From the NCBI RefSeq assembly GCF_030013595.1, contig NZ_CP122768.1: DNA of 64,000 nucleotides. One strand, written 5' to 3'. How positions within the stretch are numbered: position 1 is the first letter of the stretch; every line of letters begins with the position of its first letter. Below are positions 8,811 to 64,000 of the stretch, piece by piece. The stretch comes from Escherichia coli (GTDB lineage Bacteria; Pseudomonadota; Gammaproteobacteria; Enterobacterales; Enterobacteriaceae). Position numbers and translations under genes: made by a program. The notes beneath the pieces were generated by a model. That model was not told the DNA's origin and did no database searches. It saw only the letters and a list, made by a program, of their open reading frames with translations.

Positions 8811-8876
8811 GGACTCCACTGTCAGACGGATGGACGGACTTGAAGTAGTTGACTCAACGCTACTTAAGGTCCTGAT

Positions 8877-10485
8877 ATGACTGACATTAACTATGATAAT
8901 ACTGTATATCCATCCAGCTCTTTCTCTGGGTCTCCCTATCTGTATGGGCAAGTCTACACCTCAAGTCCTGACACAAGGCTGACACAAATCAATCTACTCA
9001 GCGTAGCTAAGCCTCAGTTAGTCCGTAGAGCCAATGGTCGATATACTATCCGCTTCAGACTCAAGGGACAGACCACACCGTTTCTTTCAGTATCGACCCG
9101 AAGCACAGACAGGAGAGTAGCCACAATGCGTCAGAGAGAGCTTGCAGCCACAGCTAAGGCCTTCATGTTGGATAGGCCTGAAGTCTCACTACAGGAGCTT
9201 ACAGAGCATCTCCGGTCTATGGCTGAGCAGTTCCTGACAGACGCTAGTGACGATTACTGGAATGGACTTGAGGTCGCTACTTTGGTGGACGAGAAGTCCA
9301 ACCTGAAGGAGCTAGCCGCTACGCAAGCCTTGAGTCTGGACCAGCAGAAGGGCATAAGGTTAGCGCTTGAAGTCCTGACCGCAGCACAGCAGAGGGTAGA
9401 TACTGGTGATACGTCCAGTCTAATCAAGCTGATTGGTGGTGGCGTAAGCCAGCTTACTGATGGAGATGACAATAACCTTACTAATAACTCAACTATATGC
9501 GACTCTACGTTGATTCTGAGGAACGAGCAGGGGGTCAGCCCGCAAGTATTCACGAGAGAGCGCCAACCATCTGTAGTTTTTTCAAGCCTAGTGTCCTCAC
9601 TGCTGGCTGAGAAGGTCCAGACCCTGAAGTCCTCCAGCTACAAGGACCTGTCGTCCTCACTGAATACCGTCTCTCGGTTTCTGCCTGAAGATATGGACCT
9701 GATGTCCCGCTCTGAGTGGCTGGCAGTGAGGGACGCTATGCTGGCTGCTGAGGTGAGACCATCGACAATCAACAAGCTGCTGACCAAAGCGAAGATGTGT
9801 CTCGATTATGGCCTGATGAATGGGCAACTTGAGGGCCGCAACCCTATTGAACGGATGAAGCTGACCAAGGATACCGACTCCAAGCGCAGAGCGTTCACAG
9901 ACGAGGAGCTGGAGAGACTTCTGGTCCGTGTTGAGGCTGAGTATCAGTTCACACGACACACGGCTCACACGACCTCTGAGGCCCGTAGATGGGCGTCTCT
10001 GGTGTCTGTGGTCACTGGCGCGAGGTCTGCTGAGGTCTGCCACCTGACTAAACGTGACGTTGTAACCTTGGACAATGGACTGGTCTGTATCGACATCAAT
10101 GAAGATGGGGACGGGAAGTCTGTGAAGAACAAACATTCAGTCCGACTTGTGCCGTTAACCGATGGGGCCTGTGGTTTCAGCCTGAAGTCCTTCCTCAAAT
10201 GGGTAGACACTCAGCCTGCTGATGGTCCCCTCTTTGGTATGACTCCGAGTGCCTACTCTAGTTGGTTTAACTCTAGGGTCCTGACTGAGGCCCTAGGAGA
10301 CGCTGAGAACGTTTCTCCACAGTCTGAGACATTGGCTGGCGACCCGAATGAAAGAGCGTGGAGTCAATCTGGTGGACGCTCAAGGCATCTTAGGTCACAG
10401 CAGTCAGTCCATTACGTATGACCTGTACGGGAAAGGACACGCTGTTGGTAGGCTGGCTGAGGTGCTGAAGACAGCTTTACTTTAA
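8877..10485 (+). pseudogene. tyrosine recombinase/integrase, apparently frameshifted near 10297-10330
   Basis: N-terminal arm-binding-like segment (GRYTIRFRLKG...STRSTDRRVA); catalytic domain residues in frame A up to 10421; conserved HSLRHWLATRM...LGHSS...YDLYGKGH C-terminus is in the +1 frame ending at 10485. Confidence 0.65.
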
Positions 10486-10644
10486 GTAGGAAGACCCAAG
10501 GTGGAGACCATATACGGCTTGATGGTTGAGACCTTGGGTCACTGAAGTCTGACTGAAGTTAGGGAGGGTGATAATAATCATAATCCCTCCTGACTATAGG
10601 CCCACTGGTTCGCCTTCGGCTGTCCGACTCTAAGTCTGTCTGTG

Positions 10645-10776
10645 GTCTTATTTAAACTGGTTCCCTAACTCAGGTCCTCCAACTTGGTGTCTTATTTAAA
10701 CTGGTTCCCTAACTCAGGTCCTCCAACTTGGTGTCTTATTTAAACTGGTTCCCTAACTCAGGCCCCTCCAAATTTC
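10645..10776 (+). repeat. 44-bp tandem direct repeat, about 2.7 copies (candidate iterons/origin or regulator binding array)
   Basis: Unit GTCTTATTTAAACTGGTTCCCTAACTCAGGTCCTCCAACTTGGT at 10645-10688 and 10689-10732, third copy diverges after about 30 bp. Confidence 0.8.
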
Positions 10777-10792
10777 GTTGTCTGTCAGCGAC

Positions 10793-10818
10793 TTAAATAT
10801 CCCCTCACCTTAGAAGAG
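10793..10818 (+). promoter_or_regulatory. phage single-subunit-RNAP-type promoter P1 (class A, CCCCTCAC upstream)
   Basis: TTAAATATCCCCTCACCTTAGAAGAG; T7-supergroup -17..+6 architecture, predicted +1 G at 10813. Confidence 0.55.
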
Positions 10819-10833
10819 TTTAGGGTTCAGACC

Positions 10834-10857
10834 CTTAACTATCACCTTAGGAGAGAC
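10834..10857 (+). promoter_or_regulatory. phage single-subunit-RNAP-type promoter P2 (class B, AACTATCAC upstream)
   Basis: CTTAACTATCACCTTAGGAGAGA; predicted +1 G at 10850; 45 bp upstream of ORF 10902. Confidence 0.55.
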
Positions 10858-10901
10858 GGGCCGTCCTCCACCCAATCAAAACCTTAAGAGGAGGACCATA
10901 C

Positions 10902-11402
10902 ATGGCTATTAAAATTCAGTGCTACACCGAGTCCGACAATGCGGCTTTCTTCGGTGACGATTCCGACCTCCAGCACCAGCTACCAGCACCGACATATGAC
11001 GAACCTAAGGCCCGCACAGGTAAGCCTCCTGTGGTCATCGACAACCGGGCTGTCCGTGCGTGGCTGATTGAGACTGGGTGTCTCTCCTATACGCAGCTTG
11101 TTGAGGCGTACCCGTGGGCTGACGATGTGTTCACAGGACTCTCACGGGCTACCAGTGGCGCTGTCGGTGCTGGACTCCCGGTATCTAAGGCGTACCTGTT
11201 CTCTGCCTTATATGGCACCAACGACATCTTCTCCCGTAACACAGCCAAATCCTACGCTGACATCACTGGGCGTTCACCGTCTCCTCGCTACCTGCGCCAC
11301 GTCAATAGCGTGCTTCAGGCTACGGCTGTGAATCTGGCTAAGGTTCTGAAGGACCGAGGGGATTTCACATGGTGGGATTACAACGATCAGTGCCTGTCCT
11401 GA
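10902..11402 (+). CDS. hypothetical protein, first gene downstream of P1/P2
   Basis: 166-aa ORF with strong RBS AAGAGGAGG; no family recognised. Confidence 0.6.
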   Translation: MAIKIQCYTESDNAAFFGDDSDLQHQLPAPTYDEPKARTGKPPVVIDNRAVRAWLIETGCLSYTQLVEAYPWADDVFTGLSRATSGAVGAGLPVSKAYLFSALYGTNDIFSRNTAKSYADITGRSPSPRYLRHVNSVLQATAVNLAKVLKDRGDFTWWDYNDQCLS

Positions 11403-11424
11403 GAGCCGCGCCAGCTCTGGGCTG

Positions 11425-11448
11425 GAATACCCCCTCACTATAGGGACA
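11425..11448 (+). promoter_or_regulatory. phage single-subunit-RNAP-type promoter P3 (class A; T3-like CC at -11/-10)
   Basis: GAATACCCCCTCACTATAGGGACA; 13/13 match to T7 consensus from -9 to +4 (CTCACTATAGGGA). Confidence 0.7.
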
Positions 11449-11451
11449 CCC

Positions 11452-11477
11452 CCTAAACTATCACTATAGGGGGGACC
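11452..11477 (+). promoter_or_regulatory. phage single-subunit-RNAP-type promoter P4 (class B)
   Basis: CTAAACTATCACTATAGGGGGGACC; TCACTATAGGG core. Confidence 0.65.
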
Positions 11478-11712
11478 AACCTTGCCTCTGCTTCTGATGC
11501 GTCAGAACACGCGAGGTCCTCCCGACATTAAGTATTCTCCTAAGTAATCAAGGCCCGTGACCGCCTCTGACAGACCTCCTGTATCGACCTCCAGCTCGTT
11601 AGCGTTCTTTAGTCGTCTCGGTTAGTAGGTAACCGGCTCATTTAAACCGTCTGGTCTGTTTCCTCCGGCTCTACAAAAATAATGTCCATCATTTTTTAAT
11701 GGACACTATCGT

Positions 11713-12360
11713 ATGAAACACCGGACCTGGATCACTGAAGCTTTACGTCTTCACTTTGAAGAACATTTACCCCGGGTTGTGGCCGGGCGTCGCCTGGGTG
11801 TACCAAAATCAACAGTTTGTAGTATGTTCGTGCGCTTTCGGAGAGCTGGCCTTTCGTGGCCTTTGCCCGCAGGCATGTCGGAGCAGGAACTTGATGCCTG
11901 CCTTTACGGACAATTTTCCACGGTACCAGTCGTACGTCCTGAAAGCACCGTTATATCCGAAGCCCCCGTGGTAAAAAAACGTCCCCGGCGGCCCAACTTC
12001 CCTTATGAGTTTAAAATCGCCTTAGTGGAGCAGTCACTGCAGCCCGGAGCCTGTGTGGCGCAGATCGCCCGGGAAAACGGAATCAACGATAACCTGCTCT
12101 TCAACTGGCGCCATCAATACCGGAAAGGTGGCCTGCTGCCTTCCGGAAAAAATATGCCGGCACTGCTTCCCGTGACGTTAACGCCGGAGCCGGATAATAA
12201 AATCCCGGCCCCCGCACAGGAACCAGAGCAGATAAATACACCGTCCGACAGTCTGTGTTGTGAGCTGGTTCTGCCGGCCGGAACTCTCAGGCTTAAAGGT
12301 AAACTGACGCCGGCGTTATTACAGACACTTATCCGCGAAATAAAAGGGAGCAGCCACTGA
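11713..12360 (+). CDS. IS66 accessory protein (orf1/TnpA-like)
   Basis: 215 aa, first ORF of IS66 triad; identical to copy-2 ORF. Confidence 0.8.
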   Translation: MKHRTWITEALRLHFEEHLPRVVAGRRLGVPKSTVCSMFVRFRRAGLSWPLPAGMSEQELDACLYGQFSTVPVVRPESTVISEAPVVKKRPRRPNFPYEFKIALVEQSLQPGACVAQIARENGINDNLLFNWRHQYRKGGLLPSGKNMPALLPVTLTPEPDNKIPAPAQEPEQINTPSDSLCCELVLPAGTLRLKGKLTPALLQTLIREIKGSSH

Positions 12361-12707
12361 TGATATCTCTCCCTGCAGGTTCGCGTATCTGGCTGGTTGC
12401 AGGTATCACCGATATGCGAAATGGCTTTAACGGCCTGGCATCAAAAGTTCAGAACGTCCTGAAGGATGACCCGTTCTCCGGACACCTGTTCATCTTCCGC
12501 GGACGCCGGGGTGACCAGATAAAAGTGTTGTGGGCTGACAGTGACGGACTGTGCCTCTTCACCAAACGCCTGGAGCGGGGCCGCTTCGTCTGGCCAGTCA
12601 CCCGTGACGGCAAGGTGCACCTTACTCCGGCTCAGTTATCCATGCTTCTTGAAGGTATCAACTGGAAGCACCCGAAACGAACGGAACGCGCTGGAATCCG
12701 CATATAA
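12360..12707 (+). CDS. IS66 Orf2 (TnpB-like)
   Basis: 115 aa, overlapping start with preceding stop (ATGA); typical IS66 orf2. Confidence 0.8.
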   Translation: MISLPAGSRIWLVAGITDMRNGFNGLASKVQNVLKDDPFSGHLFIFRGRRGDQIKVLWADSDGLCLFTKRLERGRFVWPVTRDGKVHLTPAQLSMLLEGINWKHPKRTERAGIRI

Positions 12708-12726
12708 CCCGTTGTAAAGTGAGGAT

Positions 12727-14298
12727 ATGGACACCTCACTTGCTCATGAGAACGCCCGCCTGCGGGCACTGTTGCAGACGCAACAGGACACCATCCGCCA
12801 GATGGCTGAATACAACCGCCTGCTCTCACAGCGGGTGGCGGCTTATGCTTCCGAAATCAACCGGCTGAAGGCGCTGGTTGCGAAACTGCAACGTATGCAG
12901 TTCGGTAAAAGCTCAGAAAAACTTCGTGCAAAAACCGAACGGCAGATACAGGAAGCACAGGAGCGAATCAGCGCACTTCAGGAAGAAATGGCGGAAACGC
13001 TGGGTGAGCAATATGACCCGGTACTGCCATCCGCCCTGCGCCAGTCTTCAGCCCGTAAACCGTTACCGGCCTCACTTCCCCGTGAAACCCGGGTTATCCG
13101 GCCGGAAGAGGAATGCTGTCCTGCCTGTGGTGGTGAACTCAGTTCTCTGGGATGTGATGTGTCAGAGCAACTGGAGCTTATCAGCAGCGCCTTTAAGGTT
13201 ATCGAAACACAACGTCCGAAACAGGCCTGTTGCCGGTGCGACCATATCGTACAGGCACCAGTACCTTCAAAACCCATTGCACGCAGTTATGCCGGAGCGG
13301 GGCTTCTGGCCCATGTTGTCACCGGGAAATATGCAGACCATCTGCCGTTATACCGCCAGTCAGAAATATACCGTCGTCAGGGAGTGGAGCTGAGCCGTGC
13401 CACACTGGGGCGCTGGACAGGTGCTGTTGCTGAACTGCTGGAGCCGCTGTATGACGTCCTGCGCCAGTATGTGCTGATGCCCGGTAAAGTCCATGCTGAT
13501 GATATCCCCGTCCCGGTCCAGGAGCCGGGCAGCGGTAAAACCCGGACAGCCCGGCTGTGGGTCTACGTCCGTGATGACCGTAACGCCGGTTCACAGATGC
13601 CCCCGGCGGTCTGGTTCGCGTACAGTCCGGACCGGAAAGGTATCCATCCACAAAATCACCTGGCCGGTTACAGCGGTGTGCTTCAGGCCGATGCTTACGG
13701 TGGTTACCGGGCGTTATACGAATCCGGCAGAATAACGGAAGCCGCGTGTATGGCTCATGCCCGGAGAAAAATCCACGATGTGCATGCAAGAGCGCCCACC
13801 TACATCACCACGGAAGCCCTGCAGCGTATCGGTGAACTGTATGCCATCGAGGCAGAGGTCCGGGGCTGTTCAGCAGAACAGCGTCTGGCGGCAAGAAAAG
13901 CCAGAGCCGCGCCACTGATGCAGTCACTGTATGACTGGATACAGCAACAGATGAAAACACTGTCGCGTCACTCAGATACGGCAAAAGCGTTCGCATACCT
14001 GCTGAAACAGTGGGATGCACTGAACGTGTACTGCAGTAATGGCTGGGTGGAAATCGACAACAACATCGCAGAGAACGCCTTACGGGGAGTGGCCGTAGGC
14101 CGGAAAAACTGGATGTTCGCGGGTTCCGACAGCGGTGGTGAACATGCGGCGGTGTTGTACTCGCTGATCGGCACATGCCGTCTGAACAATGTGGAGCCAG
14201 AAAAGTGGCTGCGTTACGTCATTGAACATATCCAGGACTGGCCGGCAAACCGGGTACGCGATCTGTTGCCCTGGAAAGTTGATCTGAGCTCTCAGTAA
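12727..14298 (+). CDS. IS66-family DDE transposase (Orf3/TnpC)
   Basis: 523 aa with leucine-zipper-like N-terminus, CxxC...CxxC zinc motif and DDE region. Confidence 0.85.
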
Positions 14299-14582
14299 AT
14301 ATCAATACGGTTCTGACGAGTCGCTTACGTTAGTAGCTCGTCTACTCACTACATTGGCTTAAGTCTATCACCGCTCACCATCTGGAGTCCTTACAGCTCG
14401 TCCTGACATGCGGTCTCACCTTATATGCACATGGAGAACATGGCCACTCCAGACCAACACTAATCAACATTAACCCTATTCACTTTCGTTAAGCATTTTT
14501 TGGTGGGTCCGTTTGGATGCATTGAATAGGTGCGGACTCCACGTGGAGACAGAAAGTGCTTTACTAAAGGAGCATCCTTTAT

Positions 14583-14972
14583 ATGACTATTAAATCCATC
14601 GTTATCAACGGTAAGACCATCCTGTCTACACCTAACGCCATCAATGAGGGTGTCTGGTTCGACATGCTTGAGGTCCATCAAGCTGCTGGCTTGCCTGCTA
14701 ACAAGACGTTCTCACAGTGGCGCAGCCGACAGTCTCGTGCATTAGAAGAGGCTGGAGAGGTGTCGTTTGACAGTGTACAGAAGACCCTGTGTGGCAGCTT
14801 TGTGGCAGTGCTGGCCTACCTTATGTGGGCGGACCTTACTCTCTGGCTGGCGGTGGTTCGTTACGTTGCGTCTGAGACTATCGGCGTCCTGCCTGACCGC
14901 TTCAAGTCTATCGACGGTGATAACCCCGAGTTAGAAATGTCAGAGGATAACAGCGAGTGGGAGGACTTCTAA
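14583..14972 (+). CDS. KilA-N domain protein (short)
   Basis: 129 aa; N-terminal motif WFDMLEVHQAAGLPANK...WLAVVRYV resembling KilA-N; strong RBS AAGGAG. Confidence 0.55.
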   Translation: MTIKSIVINGKTILSTPNAINEGVWFDMLEVHQAAGLPANKTFSQWRSRQSRALEEAGEVSFDSVQKTLCGSFVAVLAYLMWADLTLWLAVVRYVASETIGVLPDRFKSIDGDNPELEMSEDNSEWEDF

Positions 14973-14973
14973 G

Positions 14974-15714
14974 ATGACCATGAGCCAGCTTGAAGCATTA
15001 CCTATCGTCATCGAGGGTCATTCATTCATCTGCAACGACCAGCGCATGTGGAACCTGAACGAGATTCACCGAGTGTTAGGTCTTCCAGCAAGCAAGATGC
15101 CGTCTGAGTGGAATAACAAGATTCGCACACAACTTGACCGCTCCGGAAATTTCCGGACCGTGAATGGTGACGGCGGTGGTACATGGGCGACCGAGGCTGG
15201 GACCGTGGCTTATGCTATGTGGGTCTCTACAGATTTCTACCTGATGGTCATCAATGCTTTCATCTTTATGCGTAACGACGCAATCGTCCGAGAGCGTGTA
15301 GCGGTCAAACAGGCTGACGAGGCTAACGCTAACCTCTCCATCGCAGCACCTAAGGCAGACATCTTTGACGGTCGTCTGACCAATGGTGGCTCTGTTCCGT
15401 GGAACTGGGCGTGTAAATCTTTGGGTCTTGCCCCGATGAAACTGAAAGAGGGCTTGAAGCGCTCCGGTAAGTTCGTCCAGAAGTGGAACCCTGACAGTTA
15501 CGCCGACGAGCTTCGACCTCAGGAGAAGGCGTTCAGTATTGGACTATTCGTCACTAAGTCAGTCATGGGTAAAGACACATGGCAGGTGACAGCTAAAGGC
15601 TACGCATGGATGCAGGGGAACGCCCAGAAGTGGAGAGAGCTAATAGCTGATGGTGACCGCTTAAAGGCTGCTGAGCGTCGAGCACAGAAGCGTCTTAACC
15701 GTGGAGGTAAGTAG
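14974..15714 (+). CDS. KilA-N domain protein with C-terminal extension
   Basis: 246 aa; MWNLNEIHRVLGLP...NGDGGGTWATEAGTVAYAMWVSTDFYLMVI typical of KilA-N; start 2 nt after preceding stop. Confidence 0.6.
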   Translation: MTMSQLEALPIVIEGHSFICNDQRMWNLNEIHRVLGLPASKMPSEWNNKIRTQLDRSGNFRTVNGDGGGTWATEAGTVAYAMWVSTDFYLMVINAFIFMRNDAIVRERVAVKQADEANANLSIAAPKADIFDGRLTNGGSVPWNWACKSLGLAPMKLKEGLKRSGKFVQKWNPDSYADELRPQEKAFSIGLFVTKSVMGKDTWQVTAKGYAWMQGNAQKWRELIADGDRLKAAERRAQKRLNRGGK

Positions 15715-15716
15715 TC

Positions 15717-15941
15717 ATGGCTATGATTGACCCTCGTACACCTATCGGCAAAGCGACCCTTCGTTACCGTGGTCTGCCTACACGTCATCTGCTGTCCCTG
15801 CTGAGACTTGGAGTCGAAGACCCCGAACGCCCGTACTACAGTCGAGACGAGCTAATAGCTATGTTGGTGGACCGTGATTTAGACAATCAGTTACGCCGAG
15901 CCTTTGCGAAGTCTAGCGCAGCTAGGGAACTGGAGTCCTGA
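15717..15941 (+). CDS. hypothetical protein
   Basis: 74-aa ORF, start 3 nt after preceding stop, same strand. Confidence 0.45.
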   Translation: MAMIDPRTPIGKATLRYRGLPTRHLLSLLRLGVEDPERPYYSRDELIAMLVDRDLDNQLRRAFAKSSAARELES

Positions 15942-16146
15942 ACCTTATGGGGCAGAAAAACCGCCGCATAAACCTATCGTCTGCTGACCGAAGTTTCGAC
16001 GCATTGAGCCAGACGGAAAAGTTTTCCTGCTGGTAAACCACCTTAATTTAAACACCTTTTGAGAATGACCGATGCGGGGAGACCCGTAGGCATAACTGTG
16101 TCTGCGATACCGATAGTTCTCACCTTCTCAATAGGAGTACTACCTT

Positions 16147-16638
16147 ATGTTATTCAACAACAACGACTGGAAACTATCAGTCACCGACATCAATCCCTAT
16201 GAAAATACTGTGAGTCTGGACGGTCAGTCCTATCCGCTGTCTCTGGCGATTAAGACCCTGATTCCGGGCTACCTGTCAGGCTTACCGTCCACCAGCCGCG
16301 AGGCGATGGAGTTACTGGAAGCTCTGGCTGAAGCTGGCGTGTCCATTGGCAACTTCTTCAGTAATGACCTGATGACCGCCTATGGTCGCCGCCAGCAGAA
16401 CAAGCGAGCCGAAGCTGAGCGTATTGCTAAAGAGCAGCGCATTCAGGCTGAGCGTATGCGTGAAGAGAACATGACTGATGCAGAGTGGCAGAAAGAGCTA
16501 CAGCGCCGTGAACAGGTCAAAGCTGAACGCCGGACCTATGGTGAGCACCTCCGCAGTGCTACCCATTCCGCTGGGCGCTCCCGTGCTTCTATGGTCGCTG
16601 ACATTGAGTCCACGGACAACTGGATGGACAGCCTCTAA
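16147..16638 (+). CDS. hypothetical charged coiled-coil protein (scaffold-like?)
   Basis: 163 aa; RBS AGGAG; C-terminal K/R/E-rich helical segment. Confidence 0.5.
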   Translation: MLFNNNDWKLSVTDINPYENTVSLDGQSYPLSLAIKTLIPGYLSGLPSTSREAMELLEALAEAGVSIGNFFSNDLMTAYGRRQQNKRAEAERIAKEQRIQAERMREENMTDAEWQKELQRREQVKAERRTYGEHLRSATHSAGRSRASMVADIESTDNWMDSL

Positions 16639-16704
16639 GACACAGACACACAAGTGGTCCTGACCTGATGTCGGGACCCACAGTATCCAAACTAATTTAG
16701 GAGA

Positions 16705-17700
16705 TTGATTATTATGACGATTAAAGACGCTTTCCAGTTCGGCATTGAGCCAGTACGTATCAGCGACACCGACAACATTCAGATTAACGAAGGTTTGCCA
16801 ACTAACGCAGACCCGCAGGTCTATGCCCTCCAGTTAGCTAAGACGGTTAAGGCTATGCTGAACGGTGTACTTAAAGACGCTCAAGAGAACATCCCGTTCC
16901 CTGTAGAAGTCCTGCCGACCCGCAATAGCCTGCCTACTCCAATCATTGCTCACACTCTGGCTGATCGCTCTGTGGTCGTTCCTGTCCGTGGTGGTAAGCG
17001 ACCTGAAGTCGTGACCGTTCCGTCTGGACAAGAAATCGTGGTCGAACCAATCGAGCAGGCTATTCTCATCTCTGAGCAGACCAAGCTCTGGGACGCCAAG
17101 TCATCCACCGGATTCACTCAGGGCACACTTCAGCAGGACGCTATGAACATCTGTGAGAATGTGGTCCGTACCATCAACGCTCGCATGGTCGACGTTCTGG
17201 AGTCCTCCAAACTGTTGAAGACCGTAGAGCTGCCAGTCCTGACTGGAAGCCTGACCACTAAGGCAGACGCTATCATGGACGCTCTGTTTGAGAACACCGA
17301 GTCCTCTTTCGGCTCTGAAGTGTCTGATTACGGCATCATCGCCCATGAGTCCCAACTGAAAGCGCTGTCCCGTCTGGCAGCTAAACAGGGCTTCTCTGGT
17401 GGAGACGCTATCGTGGATATGCTGGGTACCGACATCGCCTATTACAACGGTGAAGACAAGGGTGTATTCATGCTGGCTAAACGCTTCACGGCCCTGAGCT
17501 TCGGCTGCTTCCGTCACGACGGTGAGAATATTACGGTCGTCCTTTCACGTGATGGCGACTCTCAGTCCCACGACTTGGAAATCCTCGGTAAAGTGTTCGT
17601 TGTCGCTGAAGCTGCTACGACCATCAAGATGGGCACTGGCTCAGCTACTGCCGTCCTGCCTGTAGTCAAACGCCTGAAGTTCACCAAGACCGAAGCGTAA
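16705..17700 (+). CDS. hypothetical 331-aa protein (possible virion/structural protein; unverified)
   Basis: Long ORF with RBS AGGAG directly downstream of coiled-coil ORF; no motif recognised. Confidence 0.5.
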   Translation: MIIMTIKDAFQFGIEPVRISDTDNIQINEGLPTNADPQVYALQLAKTVKAMLNGVLKDAQENIPFPVEVLPTRNSLPTPIIAHTLADRSVVVPVRGGKRPEVVTVPSGQEIVVEPIEQAILISEQTKLWDAKSSTGFTQGTLQQDAMNICENVVRTINARMVDVLESSKLLKTVELPVLTGSLTTKADAIMDALFENTESSFGSEVSDYGIIAHESQLKALSRLAAKQGFSGGDAIVDMLGTDIAYYNGEDKGVFMLAKRFTALSFGCFRHDGENITVVLSRDGDSQSHDLEILGKVFVVAEAATTIKMGTGSATAVLPVVKRLKFTKTEA

Positions 17701-17844
17701 GACCAATGGGTAAGAGGTAAGTCTGGACTGAATATCAGCAGGACTTCAGGTGGTGGCCTGTCACTGTGATTAACTAACTACGGTCTGGACCAATGGTCTG
17801 GGCCTTATTACTGGTATGGTAGTATACAGGCGAAGGAGGACCCA

Positions 17845-18000
17845 ATGTCTATGACTTCCGCAGACCTAAGGTCCCTCCTGACTCTGGTCTATAAACTCGT
17901 GTTCCTCTCTGTGGGTCTCTACATGGTTCTCTCTGGTCGACTCGGTGTGGATGTGTTCGACACTCTGTCTAAGGCTGTGGGTGGACTTCTAGGTCCTTAG
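17845..18000 (+). CDS. small hydrophobic protein (51 aa, one predicted TM helix)
   Basis: ATG 17845 with RBS GAAGGAGG; LVFLSVGLYMVLSG hydrophobic core; below ORF-track length cutoff. Confidence 0.4.
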   Translation: MSMTSADLRSLLTLVYKLVFLSVGLYMVLSGRLGVDVFDTLSKAVGGLLGP

Positions 18001-18241
18001 GTTTGGACTCACAGTGGGACCGATGATTTCTGACAGAAAAATGTGAATGACCATCTAATACATTAAGCCAGCAGACTTCCCCCCATAGTCCCGCCTCAAG
18101 TCCAGACCGAGGCCACCGGGGGTCCTGACCAGCCGTCTAGACATCCCGTCTAATGACACAAGTCTGGCACAAAGCCTGACACAAAGTCCTTGACTCAATG
18201 CAGGACCTCAGGCCTACTAAGGGTCCGCTTCAAGTCCTTGA

Positions 18242-18251
18242 AGTTCCAGAT
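18242..18251. repeat. right copy of 10-bp direct repeat AGTTCCAGAT
   Basis: Identical to 8801-8810; ynfE sequence resumes here. Confidence 0.8.
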
Positions 18252-19652
18252 GAACTTAATGGGCACATCCAGTTTATCTTTGCCGCGGACGCCGTCGCGG
18301 ATTGCCGTCATTTGCGGGCCATGATCGATAGCATCCGTCCAGCTGAAGCAGGAGATTGACGTTTTGACCGGATTATCCAGCACCGGTAGGCGTTCTATGG
18401 TAATGGTATAGGTCGATTCACGCGCGCCACTATTCCCGCCGCTGATGCCGACATTGCCCGTCAAAATAGGCAACATAGCAATAGCGCGTGCGGTCAGCTC
18501 ACCGTTTGCCTGGCGTTGCGGCCCCCAGCCCTGGCAGATATAAGCGGGTTTTGCTGTGCCAATTTCACGCGCCAGTTTGATGATACGGTCCACCGGGATA
18601 CCGGTAATTTGCGAAGCCCACTGCGGCGTTTTCGCTGTTTTATCGTCACCTTCACCAAGAATATAGGCTTTATAGTGACCATTTTTTGGTGCATCTGCGG
18701 GTAAGGTTTTTTCGTCATAGCCGACGCAGTATTTATCAAGAAAAGGTTGATCAACGAGATTTTCGTTAATCAATACCCAGGCAATACCCGCAACCAGCGC
18801 GGCATCGGTGCCCGGGCGAATAGGAAGCCATTCGTCTTCACGACCGGCAGCCGTATCGGTATATCGCGGATCGATAACAATCATTTTTGCGTTCGATTTC
18901 TCGCGCGCTTTTTCAAGAAGATAAGTGATGCCACCACCGCTCATGCGGGTTTCTGCCGGGTTGTTACCAAACATCACGACCAGCTTGCTGTTTTCAATAT
19001 CCGTGGTGCTGTTGCCATCATTACTGCCGTAGGTGTAGGGCATGGCACAGGAAATTTGCGCGGTGCTGTAGGAGCCATACTGGTTGAGTGAGCCGCCGTA
19101 GCAGTTCATCAGGCGTTTGACCGCCGAGGCGGATGGCGAAGAGCGGGTCATATTGCCGCCAACAATCCCCGAAGAGTACTGAATATATACAGCCTCATTG
19201 TCATATTGTTCGACGGTTTTTTTCAGGCTACTGGCGATAGTATCCAGGGCTTCATCCCAGCTAATCCGTTCGAATTTGCCTTCGCCGCGTTTGCCCACGC
19301 GTTTCATTGGGTAATTCAAGCGGTCGGGATGATTAATACGCCGACGGATGGAGCGACCGCGCAAACAGGCGCGTACTTGATGATTGCCATACTCATCGCT
19401 GCCGGTGTTGTCAGTTTCCACCCAGGTCACTTCATTATCTTTAACATGCAGACGAAGTGCACAGCGGCTACCACAGTTGACGGAACAGGCACCCCAGACC
19501 ACTTTCTCGCTGGCCTGTTGTACTGCTGCCGCTGCACTGCGCAGGGTGAACGGTAAAGAAAAACCGCCTGCAGCCAGCGCCAGAGAACCTATCGCGGTAG
19601 ATTTAACGAGTGTTCTGCGGCTGATGCCCACCATTTGTTCATTTTTGGACAT
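18243..19652 (-). pseudogene. ynfE: ynfE N-terminal fragment (Tat signal, catalytic subunit) ending at insertion junction
   Basis: 470 ynfE codons from MSKNEQMVGISRRTLVKS to IWN at 18243; ORF then runs 16 codons into element DNA to a stop at 18195. Confidence 0.85.
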
Positions 19653-24882: not shown

Positions 24883-24975
24883 ATGACAATAGAAAAACAC
24901 GAAAGAAGCACTAAGGATTTGGTGAAAGCAGCAGTATCGGGATGGCTGGGCACAGCGCTTGAATTTATGGATTTC
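24883..24975 (+). pseudogene. ydfJ: 5' fragment of MFS transporter gene ydfJ truncated by prophage integration
   Basis: MTIEKHERSTKDLVKAAVSGWLGTALEFMDF then divergence; in E. coli K-12 the Qin prophage occupies this locus. Confidence 0.55.
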
Positions 24976-25012
24976 AAGAGTCATACGTGTCAACTATTTG
25001 ATAAATATTAAA

Positions 25013-25801
25013 TTAATTTTTCATTGCTTCGTTATGGGGCATGGTTGGGGCAAACTCGCTTAACTGTGTATTTAACAAAGCTACCTGTGCATTATTGTTT
25101 TCAGACATCCATTTTCCGTATACCTGAAATACCATTTGCGCATCTGCATGGCCCATCTGGTTTGCTATAAATGCCGGGTTAGCACCAGCTGTCAGCGACC
25201 AGCAGGCATAAGTATGTCTCGACTGATATGATTTTCGATGGCGGAGTCCGGCACGTTTTATCGCTGCGTCCCACATCTGCCTTATTGAGTCAACGGTAAA
25301 ATGGTCACCATAATTTTTTACTCTCGCTGACACTTCAGGTTGAAAAACAAAGGTGCATTTATGTTTTTCTGTTCTGCCATACTCTCTGAGGTGAACATCA
25401 ATGATATGCTCTTTGCTCAGTCTCGTTAATGTCATCTGACTCCGGAGAGCGTCGATTGCTGGCTTAATAAGATGAATGACCCGATTGGTTCCCGCCTGTG
25501 TTTTTGGTACCGTGAAACGGTCTTTTGCTAAATTTCTCCTGATCATCATTGTTCCATTTTTCAGATCTATGTCCTCCCATCCAAGTGCACACAGCTCACC
25601 AGGGCGAACGCCAGTATAAACAGAAACACACCATAAATTTTTGGCTTGCTGATTTCTGCACGCATCGATAAGACGGATGAATTCCTCCCGCGAAAGAGGA
25701 TCCGGAATGGTTCTTGATTCCTTTAATGGCGAGATCCCCTTAAACGGGTTATCTGCCAGGTAACCGTTATCAACACCAAACTGGAACACGGCGTTAAGAT
25801 T
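25013..25801 (-). pseudogene. prophage tyrosine integrase, C-terminal catalytic part (gene split by IS66)
   Basis: R...HxxR...Y catalytic domain (LRHRKSYQSRHTYA, MGHADAQM..VYGKW); reading frame continues to the IS junction at 25801. Confidence 0.85.
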
Positions 25802-25831
25802 GTAAGCGACTCGTCAGAACCGTATTGATAT

Positions 25832-27403
25832 TTACTGAGAGCTCAGATCAACTTTCCAGGGCAACAGATCGCGTACCCGGTTTGCCGGCCAGTCCTGGAT
25901 ATGTTCAATGACGTAACGCAGCCACTTTTCTGGCTCCACATTGTTCAGACGGCATGTGCCGATCAGCGAGTACAACACCGCCGCATGTTCACCACCGCTG
26001 TCGGAACCCGCGAACATCCAGTTTTTCCGGCCTACGGCCACTCCCCGTAAGGCGTTCTCTGCGATGTTGTTGTCGATTTCCACCCAGCCATTACTGCAGT
26101 ACACGTTCAGTGCATCCCACTGTTTCAGCAGGTATGCGAACGCTTTTGCCGTATCTGAGTGACGCGACAGTGTTTTCATCTGTTGCTGTATCCAGTCATA
26201 CAGTGACTGCATCAGTGGCGCGGCTCTGGCTTTTCTTGCCGCCAGACGCTGTTCTGCTGAACAGCCCCGGACCTCTGCCTCGATGGCATACAGTTCACCG
26301 ATACGCTGCAGGGCTTCCGTGGTGATGTAGGTGGGCGCTCTTGCATGCACATCGTGGATTTTTCTCCGGGCATGAGCCATACACGCGGCTTCCGTTATTC
26401 TGCCGGATTCGTATAACGCCCGGTAACCACCGTAAGCATCGGCCTGAAGCACACCGCTGTAACCGGCCAGGTGATTTTGTGGATGGATACCTTTCCGGTC
26501 CGGACTGTACGCGAACCAGACCGCCGGGGGCATCTGTGAACCGGCGTTACGGTCATCACGGACGTAGACCCACAGCCGGGCTGTCCGGGTTTTACCGCTG
26601 CCCGGCTCCTGGACCGGGACGGGGATATCATCAGCATGGACTTTACCGGGCATCAGCACATACTGGCGCAGGACGTCATACAGCGGCTCCAGCAGTTCAG
26701 CAACAGCACCTGTCCAGCGCCCCAGTGTGGCACGGCTCAGCTCCACTCCCTGACGACGGTATATTTCTGACTGGCGGTATAACGGCAGATGGTCTGCATA
26801 TTTCCCGGTGACAACATGGGCCAGAAGCCCCGCTCCGGCATAACTGCGTGCAATGGGTTTTGAAGGTACTGGTGCCTGTACGATATGGTCGCACCGGCAA
26901 CAGGCCTGTTTCGGACGTTGTGTTTCGATAACCTTAAAGGCGCTGCTGATAAGCTCCAGTTGCTCTGACACATCACATCCCAGAGAACTGAGTTCACCAC
27001 CACAGGCAGGACAGCATTCCTCTTCCGGCCGGATAACCCGGGTTTCACGGGGAAGTGAGGCCGGTAACGGTTTACGGGCTGAAGACTGGCGCAGGGCGGA
27101 TGGCAGTACCGGGTCATATTGCTCACCCAGCGTTTCCGCCATTTCTTCCTGAAGTGCGCTGATTCGCTCCTGTGCTTCCTGTATCTGCCGTTCGGTTTTT
27201 GCACGAAGTTTTTCTGAGCTTTTACCGAACTGCATACGTTGCAGTTTCGCAACCAGCGCCTTCAGCCGGTTGATTTCGGAAGCATAAGCCGCCACCCGCT
27301 GTGAGAGCAGGCGGTTGTATTCAGCCATCTGGCGGATGGTGTCCTGTTGCGTCTGCAACAGTGCCCGCAGGCGGGCGTTCTCATGAGCAAGTGAGGTGTC
27401 CAT
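25832..27403 (-). CDS. IS66-family DDE transposase (Orf3/TnpC)
   Basis: 523 aa identical to 12727..14298 product. Confidence 0.85.
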
Positions 27404-27422
27404 ATCCTCACTTTACAACGGG

Positions 27423-27770
27423 TTATATGCGGATTCCAGCGCGTTCCGTTCGTTTCGGGTGCTTCCAGTTGATACCTTCAAGAAGCATGGATAACTGAGC
27501 CGGAGTAAGGTGCACCTTGCCGTCACGGGTGACTGGCCAGACGAAGCGGCCCCGCTCCAGGCGTTTGGTGAAGAGGCACAGTCCGTCACTGTCAGCCCAC
27601 AACACTTTTATCTGGTCACCCCGGCGTCCGCGGAAGATGAACAGGTGTCCGGAGAACGGGTCATCCTTCAGGACGTTCTGAACTTTTGATGCCAGGCCGT
27701 TAAAGCCATTTCGCATATCGGTGATACCTGCAACCAGCCAGATACGCGAACCTGCAGGGAGAGATATCAT
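27423..27770 (-). CDS. IS66 Orf2 (TnpB-like)
   Basis: 115 aa identical to copy 1. Confidence 0.8.
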   Translation of the reverse strand: MISLPAGSRIWLVAGITDMRNGFNGLASKVQNVLKDDPFSGHLFIFRGRRGDQIKVLWADSDGLCLFTKRLERGRFVWPVTRDGKVHLTPAQLSMLLEGINWKHPKRTERAGIRI

Positions 27771-28417
27771 CAGTGGCTGCTCCCTTTTATTTCGCGGATA
27801 AGTGTCTGTAATAACGCCGGCGTCAGTTTACCTTTAAGCCTGAGAGTTCCGGCCGGCAGAACCAGCTCACAACACAGACTGTCGGACGGTGTATTTATCT
27901 GCTCTGGTTCCTGTGCGGGGGCCGGGATTTTATTATCCGGCTCCGGCGTTAACGTCACGGGAAGCAGTGCCGGCATATTTTTTCCGGAAGGCAGCAGGCC
28001 ACCTTTCCGGTATTGATGGCGCCAGTTGAAGAGCAGGTTATCGTTGATTCCGTTTTCCCGGGCGATCTGCGCCACACAGGCTCCGGGCTGCAGTGACTGC
28101 TCCACTAAGGCGATTTTAAACTCATAAGGGAAGTTGGGCCGCCGGGGACGTTTTTTTACCACGGGGGCTTCGGATATAACGGTGCTTTCAGGACGTACGA
28201 CTGGTACCGTGGAAAATTGTCCGTAAAGGCAGGCATCAAGTTCCTGCTCCGACATGCCTGCGGGCAAAGGCCACGAAAGGCCAGCTCTCCGAAAGCGCAC
28301 GAACATACTACAAACTGTTGATTTTGGTACACCCAGGCGACGCCCGGCCACAACCCGGGGTAAATGTTCTTCAAAGTGAAGACGTAAAGCTTCAGTGATC
28401 CAGGTCCGGTGTTTCAT
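27770..28417 (-). CDS. IS66 accessory protein (orf1/TnpA-like)
   Basis: 215 aa identical to copy 1. Confidence 0.8.
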   Translation of the reverse strand: MKHRTWITEALRLHFEEHLPRVVAGRRLGVPKSTVCSMFVRFRRAGLSWPLPAGMSEQELDACLYGQFSTVPVVRPESTVISEAPVVKKRPRRPNFPYEFKIALVEQSLQPGACVAQIARENGINDNLLFNWRHQYRKGGLLPSGKNMPALLPVTLTPEPDNKIPAPAQEPEQINTPSDSLCCELVLPAGTLRLKGKLTPALLQTLIREIKGSSH

Positions 28418-28501
28418 ACGATAGTGTCCATTAAAAAATGATGGACATTATTTTTGTAGAGCCGGAGGAAACAGACCAGACGGTTTAAATGAGCCGGTTA
28501 C

Positions 28502-29016
28502 TTAAGATTTGTCATGTAATTATTTACAGTTACAGCCGATCTACCTGGTTGTGTAACAATATAGTTACTTTTGGGGCTCTGGTATCCAGTCAGTAGCTCT
28601 TTACGAACCTCCAGTAATTTTTCTTTATTAATCGATGAGGCAAGATTTTTTTCACCGATTATGCTCAGGATATTTTTGATGACGGCACGGTATGTGTTGA
28701 GTGATGTTTTTGCGACTTCAGTTTCTTTCAGTGCCAGAAATTTTTCAGCCAGTTCTTTTATGGTTAAATCTTGTCGGGTCTCACCAAATTTTTCCAGATT
28801 GCGTGAGGAGGGAAACTGTTTTGCATAGTCGAAAACACCAGTTTTTATTGCGTAACAAACAGAGGCGCGTAGCTCACCTGCAACGCGCCTGTTTTTTGCT
28901 GTGTCAGGAACCCCCAGGTTTTCCCTGACTCTTACGCCTTTATAAACAAACCAGATACGTAATTTCCCTCCATGGTTTTCCACGCCTGTCGGATATTTCA
29001 TTTCAACTTCTCTCAT
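28502..29016 (-). pseudogene. prophage tyrosine integrase, N-terminal part
   Basis: 172-aa N-terminal arm/core-binding region ending at IS66 junction. Confidence 0.8.
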
Positions 29017-29035: not shown

Positions 29036-29287
29036 TCAAGTAAGATGACGTCTTGGTCTTGCTGATGCCTGGCGCTCAATCCAGCGATCAATTTCTTCCA
29101 GGTTGTAAAAGCATGGACTGTTATCCCATGGCATACCGTCATGAGCGACATGCTTATATTCCCTTCCTTCCATAAACGATTTTTCCCGGGCCTTTTTTAA
29201 CGTACCTTTTTTTATTCCTTTCAGCGCAATTAACTGCTCTTCGGATACCCATTTGCCGGGAGAGACAATCATGATTACTTCGCTCAT
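29036..29287 (-). CDS. excisionase-like protein
   Basis: 83-aa ORF immediately upstream of integrase, same strand. Confidence 0.55.
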   Translation of the reverse strand: MSEVIMIVSPGKWVSEEQLIALKGIKKGTLKKAREKSFMEGREYKHVAHDGMPWDNSPCFYNLEEIDRWIERQASARPRRHLT

Positions 29288-33670: not shown

Positions 33671-34078
33671 TTATTTTATTGATTTATTTTTACGCGCTTT
33701 AAGCATTTCTTCGAAGAGTTTGTTGAAGTTTTCTACTCTTGCGCGCATTTCAGACAGCAAGGCTTCCTGCTCGGAAGATGGAAGAGCATCGAATAATTCG
33801 ATCAATTCTTTGTGGTTGGGAGTTAGCTCTGTTTCCACATGAAGTTCTTGTGCCGGCACTGGTGCCTTGTCTTCGTCACCAAACATTAGCCATGTAGGTG
33901 AGCACTTCAGAGCATCCGCTAAAGCAAACAATCGTTTTCCGACTGGCTGGGTTTCGTCTCTTTCCCATTGTGAAATTGTGACGTGAGCAACCCCAGCGAG
34001 GCGCGCAGCTTCTCGTTGTGTTAAGCGTAATTCTTTTCGTCGCGCCAGAACTCGCTGGCCTAGGGTTCTTGTATCCAT
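33671..34078 (-). CDS. dicA: DicA-like HTH (XRE-family) repressor
   Basis: 135 aa; N-terminal HTH LTQREAARLAGVAHVTISQWERDET; C-terminal part close to recalled DicA. Confidence 0.75.
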   Translation of the reverse strand: MDTRTLGQRVLARRKELRLTQREAARLAGVAHVTISQWERDETQPVGKRLFALADALKCSPTWLMFGDEDKAPVPAQELHVETELTPNHKELIELFDALPSSEQEALLSEMRARVENFNKLFEEMLKARKNKSIK

Positions 34079-34386: not shown

Positions 34387-34891
34387 ACAGGCTCGTGAGG
34401 CTCTGGATGCCTGGATATGTCGACCAGGAATGACACAGGAGCAGGCGACGATATTAATCACTGAAGCATTCTGGGCTTTGAAAGAGCGCCCGAACATCGA
34501 TGTTCAGCGTGTCACAGATGAAGGTGGCGCGGTTGATCAGCGAGCGCTTGGCGTTAATCGAGTGAAGATATTCGAACGCTGGAAGGCTATCGACACTAGG
34601 GATAAGCGTGAAAAGTTCACGGCGCTAGTGCCTGCAATTATGGAGGCTATCCGGATTAATGATTTCAGGTTGTATCGTGAAATTAGTGACGGAAAAAGCA
34701 TCACGTACATGATCGCCGGGTTAAACAAAGAATATGGCGATGTGGTGGAGTCCGGACTGCTTTTTGCTGATCCTGCCGTAGTGGATCGTGAAACTGACGA
34801 ACTTATAGAAAAAGCAATTGCTTTCAAACTTGCGTATCGACTGCAATACCAACAAAAAGCTGGATGGAATTATGAGCCTTCTTTTTGCTGA
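34370..34891 (+). CDS. hypothetical early-region protein (CII/YdaT-position)
   Basis: 173-aa ORF overlapping dicC-like stop. Confidence 0.45.
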   Translation: MKITPEQAREALDAWICRPGMTQEQATILITEAFWALKERPNIDVQRVTDEGGAVDQRALGVNRVKIFERWKAIDTRDKREKFTALVPAIMEAIRINDFRLYREISDGKSITYMIAGLNKEYGDVVESGLLFADPAVVDRETDELIEKAIAFKLAYRLQYQQKAGWNYEPSFC

Positions 34892-35837
34892 ACGCCCACT
34901 GGTTATAAACACACAGCTTGCGATGAAGATTGGCTTAAATGAAGCCATTGTGTTGCAGCAGTTGCATTACTGGTTGAGAGATACCAATTCCGGCATGGAA
35001 TGTGATGGTGTTCGCTGGATTTACAACACAACGGAACAATGGCTGGAACAGTTCCCATTCTGGCCAGAGTCAACGTTAAAGCGCGCGTTTGCAAGTCTGA
35101 AAACGCTGGGGCTTTTGCGTTGTGAAAAGCTCAATAAATCAAAGCGCGATATGACCAATTTCTACACGATCAACTATGGGAGCGAGCTTTTAGATGGTGG
35201 CAAATTGAACGAATCCATCGGTTCAAAATGCGCCGCTCCATCAGGTCAAAATGACACGATGGAAGAGGTCAAAATGAAACGCTCCATTGGTTCAAAACGA
35301 CCCAATGTCATCGGGTCAAAATGGCCTGATGATCTTACAGAGAATACAACAGAGATTACTACAGAGAATAAAAACACTTTTCGTCCGGAAGCTTCGCAAC
35401 CGGACCCGCAGACCGCTGAACAGGATTTTTTAACCCGGAACCCCGACGCGGTTGTGTTTAGTGCGAAAAAACGCCAGTGGGGTAGCAGGGAGGATTTGGC
35501 GTGTGCGCAGTGGATTTGGGGGCGGATCGTGAACCTTTACGAACAGGCTGCCAGCGACGATGGAGAGATCATGCGACCAAAAGAGCCTAACTGGACAGCC
35601 TGGGCCAATGACGTGCGCACAATGCGGATGCTGGATGGCAGAAGCCACAGACAAATTTGCGAAATGTTTGGTCGGGTACAGCGAGATCCATTCTGGGTAA
35701 AAAACATCATGAGCCCGTCAAAACTCCGCGAAAAATGGGACGAACTGGTCATCCGCTTGGGACGTTCACCTGTACAGCGTTGTGTGAATCATATTTCTGA
35801 ACCGGATACAGAAATTCCGCCTGGTTTCAGGGGATAA
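34872..35837 (+). CDS. replication initiation protein (lambda O-like) with internal iterons
   Basis: 321 aa; repeated SIGSK/VIGSK peptide motifs encoded by direct DNA repeats around 35210-35330. Confidence 0.65.
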   Translation: MSLLFAERPLVINTQLAMKIGLNEAIVLQQLHYWLRDTNSGMECDGVRWIYNTTEQWLEQFPFWPESTLKRAFASLKTLGLLRCEKLNKSKRDMTNFYTINYGSELLDGGKLNESIGSKCAAPSGQNDTMEEVKMKRSIGSKRPNVIGSKWPDDLTENTTEITTENKNTFRPEASQPDPQTAEQDFLTRNPDAVVFSAKKRQWGSREDLACAQWIWGRIVNLYEQAASDDGEIMRPKEPNWTAWANDVRTMRMLDGRSHRQICEMFGRVQRDPFWVKNIMSPSKLREKWDELVIRLGRSPVQRCVNHISEPDTEIPPGFRG

Positions 35838-36615: not shown

Positions 36616-38103
36616 GTGGACATTAGAGACTGGCTACCAGAATTTCAAGTTTCAGCAGAAACAGATCGGGACTTACAGACCTATTTTTTTAAGCTACCGG
36701 CGATAAAGGATATTATTGAAAGTAGGGCTTGGTTGGTTCTTGGAAGAAAAGGTACTGGTAAAACAGCCATTTATGAACACCTTAGAAGAGGAAAACCAGC
36801 CAATCTCAACGGGTTTTACTCAGTATGTCTAAATTTTAGTGACTATCCATGGCCAGCCCATCAACTTTACAAGGATGCAATGGCTGGAGAACTTTCCGCT
36901 TATCAAAAAAGTTGGATGTATCTTTTTTATATTAAGGCATTATCTAAACTTATTGAAATAAAAAATGATGCTGGAGAGACTTTAAACAAAGATCTAACGT
37001 GGGCACATAATTATATCAAAACTATCTTTGGTAGTCCCGACCCAACTCTTAGGGAGGTTTTGTTTTCAAAAATAACCAGATTAAAAACCATAAAAGGGCC
37101 CAGTGCTGGTCTTAATGAAGTATCATTGGACGCAGGTGAAATTTCGTTAGAGGAAGTTGCTGAGAATGCTCAGCTAAAGCAAAAGCTAAGAGCTAATGCT
37201 TTCACATTGCTTACGTATTTTGAAAAAATTTTTAAAGATAACATTGGTAATGAAAAAATAATTATCGCCCTTGACCAATTAGACGAAAACTGGCTAGAGG
37301 GGCAAATTGAAGAATATAGTAAGGTTTTAATAAATCTGCTAAATGTCTGTAGAAACATAGCATCTGATGAACGCCTCAATGATAAATTAAAAGTCATTCC
37401 CTTCCTACGAACGGATATTTATCATTCTTTGAAATTCAATGATAAAAACAAATTATTGCAAGATAGTGCTATCATAATCTCATGGAATGAAAATAATCTA
37501 AACGATATGTATTATGAGAGGATAAAGAAATACAAACCTAATGATCTCATATTAGATGACGAAAAGGACAGATCTGGGAAAGTATTTGAGGTTTCATTCG
37601 TTAGGCAGGGGACTCCTCCATTTAAATATATATGTCGCCGTTCTTTCTTTAGGCCTAGGGATATTATTGTCTACTTCAACAAAATTAGGGCATGTCATAA
37701 AAATAATGTCTCAGGTCTTTACACTTCCAATGAGCTTTATGAAGCTGACCGTGAAGCATCTATAAGTGTGTACAATGAGGTGATTGATGAATGGTCCAAC
37801 CAATTCCCTGAAATTGAGAACTTACTAACTGTTCTTCAAACTATCCAAGTAGAAACATTCGATTTTAATGATTTCTCCGAGAAGTGCCGTAATGAATTTG
37901 CAGGTATTTCTGATGGGGTGATACGTCAATATATCAACTTCCTGTTTGATAACTCACTTATCGGACAAAAAAAACAAGGTAGATGGGAATACGTAAGTAG
38001 TTTGCCTAACTTAAAAATTAATCTACAAAATGAGTTTAGGACACATCATGCTTTAAAATACAGGTTGCATTTAATAGAAAGCAGACCGAGCCAAAATATT
38101 TAG
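36616..38103 (+). CDS. uncharacterised P-loop NTPase (candidate defence/abortive-infection moron)
   Basis: 495 aa from GTG with RBS AAGAGG; Walker A GRKGTGKT, Walker B-like IIIALDQLDE; gene and upstream region markedly AT-rich. Confidence 0.6.
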   Translation: MDIRDWLPEFQVSAETDRDLQTYFFKLPAIKDIIESRAWLVLGRKGTGKTAIYEHLRRGKPANLNGFYSVCLNFSDYPWPAHQLYKDAMAGELSAYQKSWMYLFYIKALSKLIEIKNDAGETLNKDLTWAHNYIKTIFGSPDPTLREVLFSKITRLKTIKGPSAGLNEVSLDAGEISLEEVAENAQLKQKLRANAFTLLTYFEKIFKDNIGNEKIIIALDQLDENWLEGQIEEYSKVLINLLNVCRNIASDERLNDKLKVIPFLRTDIYHSLKFNDKNKLLQDSAIIISWNENNLNDMYYERIKKYKPNDLILDDEKDRSGKVFEVSFVRQGTPPFKYICRRSFFRPRDIIVYFNKIRACHKNNVSGLYTSNELYEADREASISVYNEVIDEWSNQFPEIENLLTVLQTIQVETFDFNDFSEKCRNEFAGISDGVIRQYINFLFDNSLIGQKKQGRWEYVSSLPNLKINLQNEFRTHHALKYRLHLIESRPSQNI

Positions 38104-46600: not shown

Positions 46601-46907
46601 ATGACTCAAGGCTATGAACTGGTTGTGAAAGGAGTCCGTAATTTTGAGAATAAAGTTACGGTAACTGTAGCCTTACAGGACAAAGAACGCTTTGACGGTG
46701 AAATTTTTGGCCTGGATGTCGCCATGGACCGTGTTGAAGGAGCTACGCTGGAGTTTTATGAGGCAGCAGCCAGAATGAGCGTCCGGCAAGTCTTCCTGGA
46801 AGTAGCAGAAAAATTGTCAGAAAAGTTGAGTCTTATCTGCAGCATCAGTACTCCTTTAAGATTGAAAATCCTGCCAATAAGCACGAGCGTCCTCATCATA
46901 AATATCT

Positions 46908-46911
<4 letters not shown>
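46601..46911 (+). pseudogene. ydfR: YdfR-like (DUF1327) gene with apparent frameshift near 46815-46820
   Basis: N-terminal 80 aa in one frame; conserved C-terminus ...SYLQHQYSFKIENPANKHERPHHKYL is in +1 frame ending at TGA overlapping lysozyme ATG; shift lies in an A-run. Confidence 0.6.
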
Positions 46912-63851: not shown

Positions 63852-64000
63852 TGCAGGATATCCGGCAGGAAACACTGAATGAATGCACCCGTGCGGAGCA
63901 GTCGGCCAGCGTGGTGCTCTGGGAAATCGACCTGACAGAGGTCGGTGGAGAACGTTATTTTTTCTGTAATGAGCAGAACGAAAAAGGTGAGCCGGTCACC
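63852..64000 (+). CDS. L: tail tip protein L, 3' end outside window
   Basis: MQDIRQETLNECTRAEQSASVVLWEIDLTEVGGERYFFCNEQNEKGEPVT matches recalled lambda gpL N-terminus. Confidence 0.85.

Follow-up and report, generated by a model that had tools for sequence, protein, structure and literature searches.

The integrase gene of a lambdoid prophage in this Escherichia coli genome is interrupted by an insertion sequence, and the locus therefore raises the question of whether the prophage is still able to leave the chromosome. The locus was analysed in a stretch of 64,000 bp of contig NZ_CP122768.1 (assembly GCF_030013595.1), hereafter the window, and all positions refer to this stretch. Overall, the account favoured here is that a copy of ISCro1 split the integrase gene (int) and that the prophage is very probably locked in place by this event.

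The prophage is a Qin/mEp460-like lambdoid prophage, full length within the window, which is inserted in ydfJ directly after rspA-rspB. The integrase end had been predicted to adjoin a fragment of ydfJ, and an ORF at 24883-25011 (+) that opens with the N-terminus of ydfJ confirmed this. The N-terminal fragment of the host ydfJ (24883-24975, (+)) ends in an 11-bp attL core, TTATGGATTTC, at 24965-24975. This core was recognised by comparison with the attR of an IS-free relative, RM10809-3, in which the identical 11-bp core was found at attR beside an annotated 5'-truncated ydfJ. The prophage of RM10809-3 is approximately 48 kb long and carries the Qin hallmarks dicB, relBE, hokD, csp genes, ydfU/T, essD-ydfR-rrrQ-rzpQ, nohA and pinQ. 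On the other side of int in the window, the excisionase gene xis (DUF1233; Pfam 1.6e-31) was identified at 29036-29287 (-). It was intact and showed 100% identity to its counterpart in RM10809-3.

The ORF list, inspection of the terminal repeats and Pfam searches identified the inserted element as a member of the IS66 family (ISCro1 by annotation), with a length of 2700 bp at 25802-28501 (-). It is flanked by an 8-bp target-site duplication, TTAAGATT, with the left copy at 25794-25801 and the right copy at 28502-28509. The original prediction, which described a prophage integrase interrupted by a 2700-bp IS66 element with a duplication, was thus right to the base in its coordinates. Three consecutive transposition genes were found on the (-) strand, namely tnpA (27770-28417; Pfam HTH_Tnp_1), tnpB (27423-27770; TnpB_IS66, 4.7e-40) and tnpC (25832-27403; DDE_Tnp_IS66, 2.5e-103, together with zf-IS66, LZ_Tnp_IS66 and DDE_Tnp_IS66_C). 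The two termini are imperfect inverted repeats that both begin with 5'-GTAA and match at 18 of their first 26 positions. Imperfect terminal inverted repeats with 5'-GTAA are a trait of the IS66 family in the ISfinder descriptions. The traits of IS66 membership were all present (consecutive tnpA-tnpB-tnpC, 8-bp duplication and GTAA-initiated imperfect repeats), and compared with ISCro1 and the IS66 family the element matched in these features as well as in its length of 2.7 kb; it is an ordinary copy with no distinguishing feature. The name was taken from the RefSeq annotation, as the element was 99.9-100% identical to RefSeq/PGAP copies named 'IS66-like element ISCro1 family'. Copies covering at least 80% of the element were present in 1492 of the 5426 complete E. 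coli genomes.

A second copy of ISCro1 was found in the window at 11629-14328 (+), with its own duplication, GTTAGTAG. It was 100% identical to the copy in int and in the opposite orientation, and it is possibly the donor or a sister of the int copy. Because the two copies of the window are 100% identical, the sequence points to a recent transposition into int. Recombination or inversion between these two inverted copies was rejected since each of them retains its own matching duplication.

The consequences for the integrase were examined by deleting the IS together with one copy of the duplication, so that 25013-25801 was joined to 28510-29016. The restored int was 1296 bp long, in frame and with zero stops, and encoded 431 aa. 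In RefSeq relatives, int starts five codons later, at 29001, which gives a protein of 426 aa. Pfam searches with the restored protein showed Arm-DNA-bind_2 at residues 9-72 (5.7e-24) and Phage_integrase at residues 206-397 (3.8e-18), and by these domains the protein is identified as a lambda-type tyrosine integrase with an N-terminal arm-binding and a C-terminal catalytic domain. Its identity was 99.3% to the integrase of phage mEp460_ev081 and 98.8% to those of HannyBb, PhiR42_1 and Tritos. The uninterrupted version can be regarded as a working phage integrase, since integrases that are 98.8-99.3% identical to it belong to isolated, viable phages. These mEp460-like lambdoid phages, which were compared with the prophage by the integrase alone, are free and viable with an uninterrupted int, whereas the int of the window prophage is split. 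An uninterrupted int allele was present in 2709 of the 5426 complete genomes, with a best DNA identity of 99.9%.

The interruption leaves two fragments, delimited by ORF and Pfam analysis and, for the C-terminal one, also by alignment. The N-terminal fragment (28498-29016, (-)) retains the arm-binding domain together with the greater part of the core-binding domain. It terminates two codons into the duplication and IS with NYMTNLK followed by a stop; its length is 167 aa when counted from the MKYPTG start or 172 aa from the MREVEM start. The C-terminal fragment (25013-25801, (-)) corresponds to residues 172-431 of the restored protein, comprises the entire catalytic domain and showed 99.6% identity to the intact int of RM10809-3 (tblastn). 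The only start codon of this fragment is a GTG at 25789, and no obvious ribosome-binding site was seen in the sequence ahead of it. Annotation pipelines routinely call IS-split integrases pseudogene fragments. Alignment to the Tn1549 Int structure (6EMY) placed the duplication, which spans codons 170-172, within the final core-binding helix, just ahead of the linker that leads to the catalytic domain. The same alignment placed R235, K269, R364, H387 and Y397 all in the C-terminal piece, with Tyr361 at the position of the first His. The IS had been predicted to separate the N-terminal DNA-binding part from the catalytic domain, and the arm-binding domain is indeed cut off from the whole catalytic domain; however, the cut lies within the last core-binding helix and not exactly at the domain boundary.

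For attL x attR recombination, lambda Int must combine arm binding, core binding and catalysis in the same polypeptide chain, and neither of the two Int fragments is therefore expected to act as a recombinase. Both integration and excision depend on Int, and the part of Xis is limited to determining the direction; a prophage with a split int should therefore be unable to excise site-specifically. The proposed course of events is that ISCro1 entered the int of the ydfJ prophage at codons 170-172 in one simple transposition event. This would yield an N-terminal fragment of 167 or 172 aa with the arm-binding and most of the core-binding domain, and a promoter-less C-terminal fragment with all the catalytic residues. 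A functional Int could then not be made, and Int/Xis-dependent attL x attR recombination would be lost. The prophage would be 'grounded', in that it would not excise and any progeny would be unable to integrate, except where a compatible Int was supplied in trans or the IS was lost precisely.

Precedents for such a state are available in E. coli. The concept of the 'grounded' prophage has been reviewed (PMC6379469), and a defining feature of it, the loss of a functional recombinase or att site, is seen here in the split int, with attL present in the window. Circularisation, replication and packaging were all absent in the three lambdoid prophages of O157 Sakai with a disrupted int (Sp3, Sp11 and Sp12), despite the many integrases resident in that strain (PMC2669165), and in K-12 the excision of Qin was undetectable because intQ is inactive (PMC3105296). 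In all of these prophages and in the window prophage int is inactivated, but while excision was undetectable in the tested Sakai and K-12 cases, for the window prophage we infer its loss from the state of int. K-12 Qin belongs to the same prophage family, is located at the same ydfJ site beside rspB and likewise has an inactivated int. However, it is a 20-kb remnant, whereas the prophage described here is of full length as far as the window reaches, and its module for lysis, packaging, head and tail is intact. Its lesion is one clean IS insertion, reversible in principle, in contrast to the decay of K-12 Qin. The earlier claim that the IS locks the prophage in place is thus upheld as far as int is split, its own integrase cannot be made and failure of excision is precedented in other prophages, and the locking itself is strongly indicated.

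The insertion was also looked for in other genomes. The exact junction between the IS and int was found as a single contiguous match in none of the 5426 complete E. coli genomes. However, at least 12 contigs from draft assemblies at NCBI encode precisely the 167-aa N-terminal fragment with the MKYPTG start, and the same kind of search found no record of the exact 172-aa ORF with the MREVEM start. Matches to the junction in draft assemblies reached up to 100% identity over 1.2-2.9 kb, and three assemblies (GCA_021649405.1, GCA_036246605.1 and GCA_008326365.1) agreed with the window at 100% identity over the junction. In other draft assemblies a further IS was nested approximately 70 bp inside the ISCro1 end. 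Because the same junction recurs in independent NCBI assemblies, the insertion can be read as a heritable feature of a clade, and an assembly artefact was rejected on the same grounds.

The state of the remaining prophage genes was assessed by translating 52 annotated genes of RM10809-3 and searching them in the window. This comparison reaches position 64000; roughly the final 15 kb of the prophage, its right third, lie further on, as does attR. A total of 50 of the 52 compared genes, beginning with xis and exo and reaching the tape measure gene at the window edge, were full length and free of internal stops; int and ydfR were the exceptions. The intact set comprised xis, exo, a replication-initiator-like gene, Q, S, R, Rz, terminase, portal, head and tail genes up to the tape measure, and the identity of the 50 genes was 92-100% except in the diverged immunity region. 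A 339-aa protein at 34818-35837 matched replication-initiator O-like PHROGs. The predicted frameshift in ydfR (46601-46908, (+)) was also found, as a 1-bp deletion in an A5 run at about 46821-46825. This 1-bp homopolymer change could even be a sequencing error, and ydfR is not known to have an essential role. The prophage had further been called 'defective, domesticated', which goes beyond the evidence because the visible prophage is intact apart from int and ydfR. The pattern of a cryptic prophage, in which multiple lytic genes are lost and mainly host-beneficial genes are kept, was absent within the window, and by its gene content the prophage looks like a recently grounded, immobilised phage. 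The repressor belongs to the DicA-like HTH proteins and is short (135 aa), with no obvious autocleavage domain. It may be insensitive to SOS, so that mitomycin C (MMC) may not induce the prophage, by analogy with O157 Sakai prophages whose repressors lack a peptidase domain and which were not MMC-inducible (PMC2669165).

Two other readings of the locus concern the prophage itself. If defects outside the window or in regulation had killed the prophage first, the IS would have been a neutral passenger, without a part in the grounding. The part of the prophage beyond the window, including attR, would leave room for such defects, ydfR is frameshifted, and ISCro1 is common in lambdoid prophage DNA generally, as shown by its presence near the portal gene in 128 genomes. 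The 50 full-length genes of the window with their high identity to the relative argue against an earlier death, as does the complete identity of the int copy of ISCro1 to its sister copy, which indicates a recent event, and this reading was considered unlikely. The prophage could alternatively still be mobile through its intact xis and att if a second prophage elsewhere in the genome provided an integrase with matching specificity. Two to three places matching the window int do occur in some complete E. coli genomes, and complementation between prophages has been documented in O157 Sakai for regional replication and packaging (PMC2669165). However, the median number of copies of the window int per complete genome was one, and the window contains just one other tyrosine recombinase (8877-10421), which is part of a different element and gave a weak Phage_integrase match. 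The int-disrupted prophages of Sakai were moreover not rescued by the many integrases resident in that genome (PMC2669165), and a helper integrase appears highly improbable. The reading in which the ISCro1 insertion in int itself grounded the prophage is therefore preferred to both, and no feature of the sequence speaks against it.

In a third reading, ISCro1 would have a hotspot specifically at the int-xis end, or its insertions there would be favoured by selection, and the window would be one case of convergent 'locking'. For the mapping of insertion sites, the loci of 20 relatives were fetched, and 17 distinct sites were found beyond that of the window: eight lay in int itself, three each in xis and in the 3' end of exo, two in the int-xis spacer and one in rspB. 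Together with the window this gave 18 distinct sites between 24414 and 29842, each with its own 8-bp duplication, and the RS571 site was only 8 bp from that of the window. ISCro1 was found in xis in the O26:H11 STEC lineage and in the int-xis spacer in the 7/2-type lineage. Neighbouring copies were searched in the complete E. coli genomes with synthetic queries that joined 1.8 kb of flank to the IS in both orientations. ISCro1 was near int in the same orientation in 79 genomes and in the opposite orientation in 72. An apparent orientation bias of the insertions was discarded, since the first search joined same-strand pieces only and the reverse query added the 72 genomes. Two controls were low, with ISCro1 nearby in 0 genomes for a core region (mlc-bioD, 24 kb away) and in 4 genomes for a GC-matched region of the same prophage (flxA-relBE). 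However, a control of the same design at the portal gene gave 128 genomes, which takes away any special status of the int end among prophage regions; on this comparison with the 79 and 72 genomes near int, an int-specific hotspot was rejected. In addition, some insertions were located in rspB and exo and left int and xis unbroken, the genome counts are inflated by clones of the 7/2-type and O26 STEC lineages, and no target consensus was evident among the duplications. A literature search found no work on ISCro1 or IS66 targeting integrases. A hotspot or selection target confined to the int-xis end was accordingly held to be very unlikely.

What these counts do show is that ISCro1 is frequent, though unevenly so, in lambdoid prophage DNA. 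A patchy preference of ISCro1, or selection for its hits, at both the attL-int-xis-exo end and the terminase-portal region of lambdoid prophages is conceivable but doubtful. If it were true, ISCro1 would repeatedly inactivate prophages in E. coli, and successful clones such as O26:H11 STEC and the 7/2-type lineage would be among those affected.

Grounding of prophages by IS insertion in int or xis is already established, and the case in the window is an ordinary one. The junction could serve as a marker of its clade because several draft assemblies share it. For the strain itself, the ydfJ prophage is probably a non-excising, recently immobilised mEp460/Qin-like copy. This matters mainly for strain-level annotation, where it would be of use in predicting which prophages of a strain are inducible or transferable.

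The selenate reductase gene ynfE was split by a 9.4-kb insert (window 8816-18256), which came to 6.7 kb once its ISCro1 copy was subtracted. A 15-bp direct repeat, AGTTCCAGATGRACT, bordered the insert at 8801-8815 and 18242-18256, and GACACAA-type short repeats were located close to both ends (8962-8988 and 18147-18185). The insert encoded a KilA-N/ANT protein (14974-15714) and its own tyrosine recombinase of 514 aa (8877-10421), which was assigned to phrog_1 (integrase); no family match was obtained for the ORFs at 10902-11402, 14583-14972, 16147-16638 and 16705-17700. Between the integrase and the next ORF, a 44-bp unit was repeated three times in tandem (10645-10776), two of the units being identical and the third 80% identical, and these repeats are possible iterons or binding sites of the arm type. 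Overall, the ynfE insert resembles a phage satellite or an integrative element of small size.

The non-IS part of this insert was matched in approximately 80 of the 5426 complete E. coli genomes searched, a rough estimate produced by subtracting the 2911 genomes that matched ISCro1 alone from the 2991 that matched with the ynfE-insert query. ISCro1 was found nearby in only two of these approximately 80 genomes. The same ynfE element was present in RM10410 (L023, 7001-16300) with two ISCro1 copies, and since their sites differed from the single site in the window (11629-14328), at least three separate ISCro1 insertions have occurred in this small element.

The repressor of the prophage (33671-34078) was only 57% identical to DicA of the IS-free relative RM10809-3 whereas the flanking genes were 97-100% identical, a pattern indicating that the two prophages share a backbone but differ in immunity type. 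The repressor is a short HTH protein of 135 aa, and therefore SOS induction with mitomycin C may not apply to this prophage. The prophage also contained an island of 35-39% GC, within which a 495-aa ORF was identified at 36616-38103. This ORF had no Pfam match and matched only phrog_13260 (function unknown) and, weakly, the PADLOC candidate PDC-M28C (4e-5), which makes it a possible defence gene or moron. In relatives the slot was occupied by other cargo: strain 7/2 carried a Kiwa KwaB-like protein there, and RM10809-3 a methyltransferase. In addition, ydfR (46601-46908), a small gene flanked by the holin and lysozyme genes, had lost 1 bp from an A5 run, and the resulting shifted frame continued into rrrQ; the deletion may be genuine or may reflect a sequencing error in the homopolymer.

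The int locus was also struck by IS families besides ISCro1. ISEc8 was found in rspB of ML775 (L009), and 95_0274 (L021) carried IS600 in int plus ISCro1 in xis. For M21170 (a search match, H3), the annotation alone placed ISApl1 in the matched region and listed two integrase fragments. Among the draft assemblies with the int::ISCro1 junction of the window, a sub-lineage (L024, L025, L028, L029 and L031) had a further IS nested approximately 70 bp inside the right end of ISCro1 (window equivalent approximately 28431-28441), encoding in L024 an rve-type transposase of 448 aa. This nested IS is a possible phylogenetic marker.
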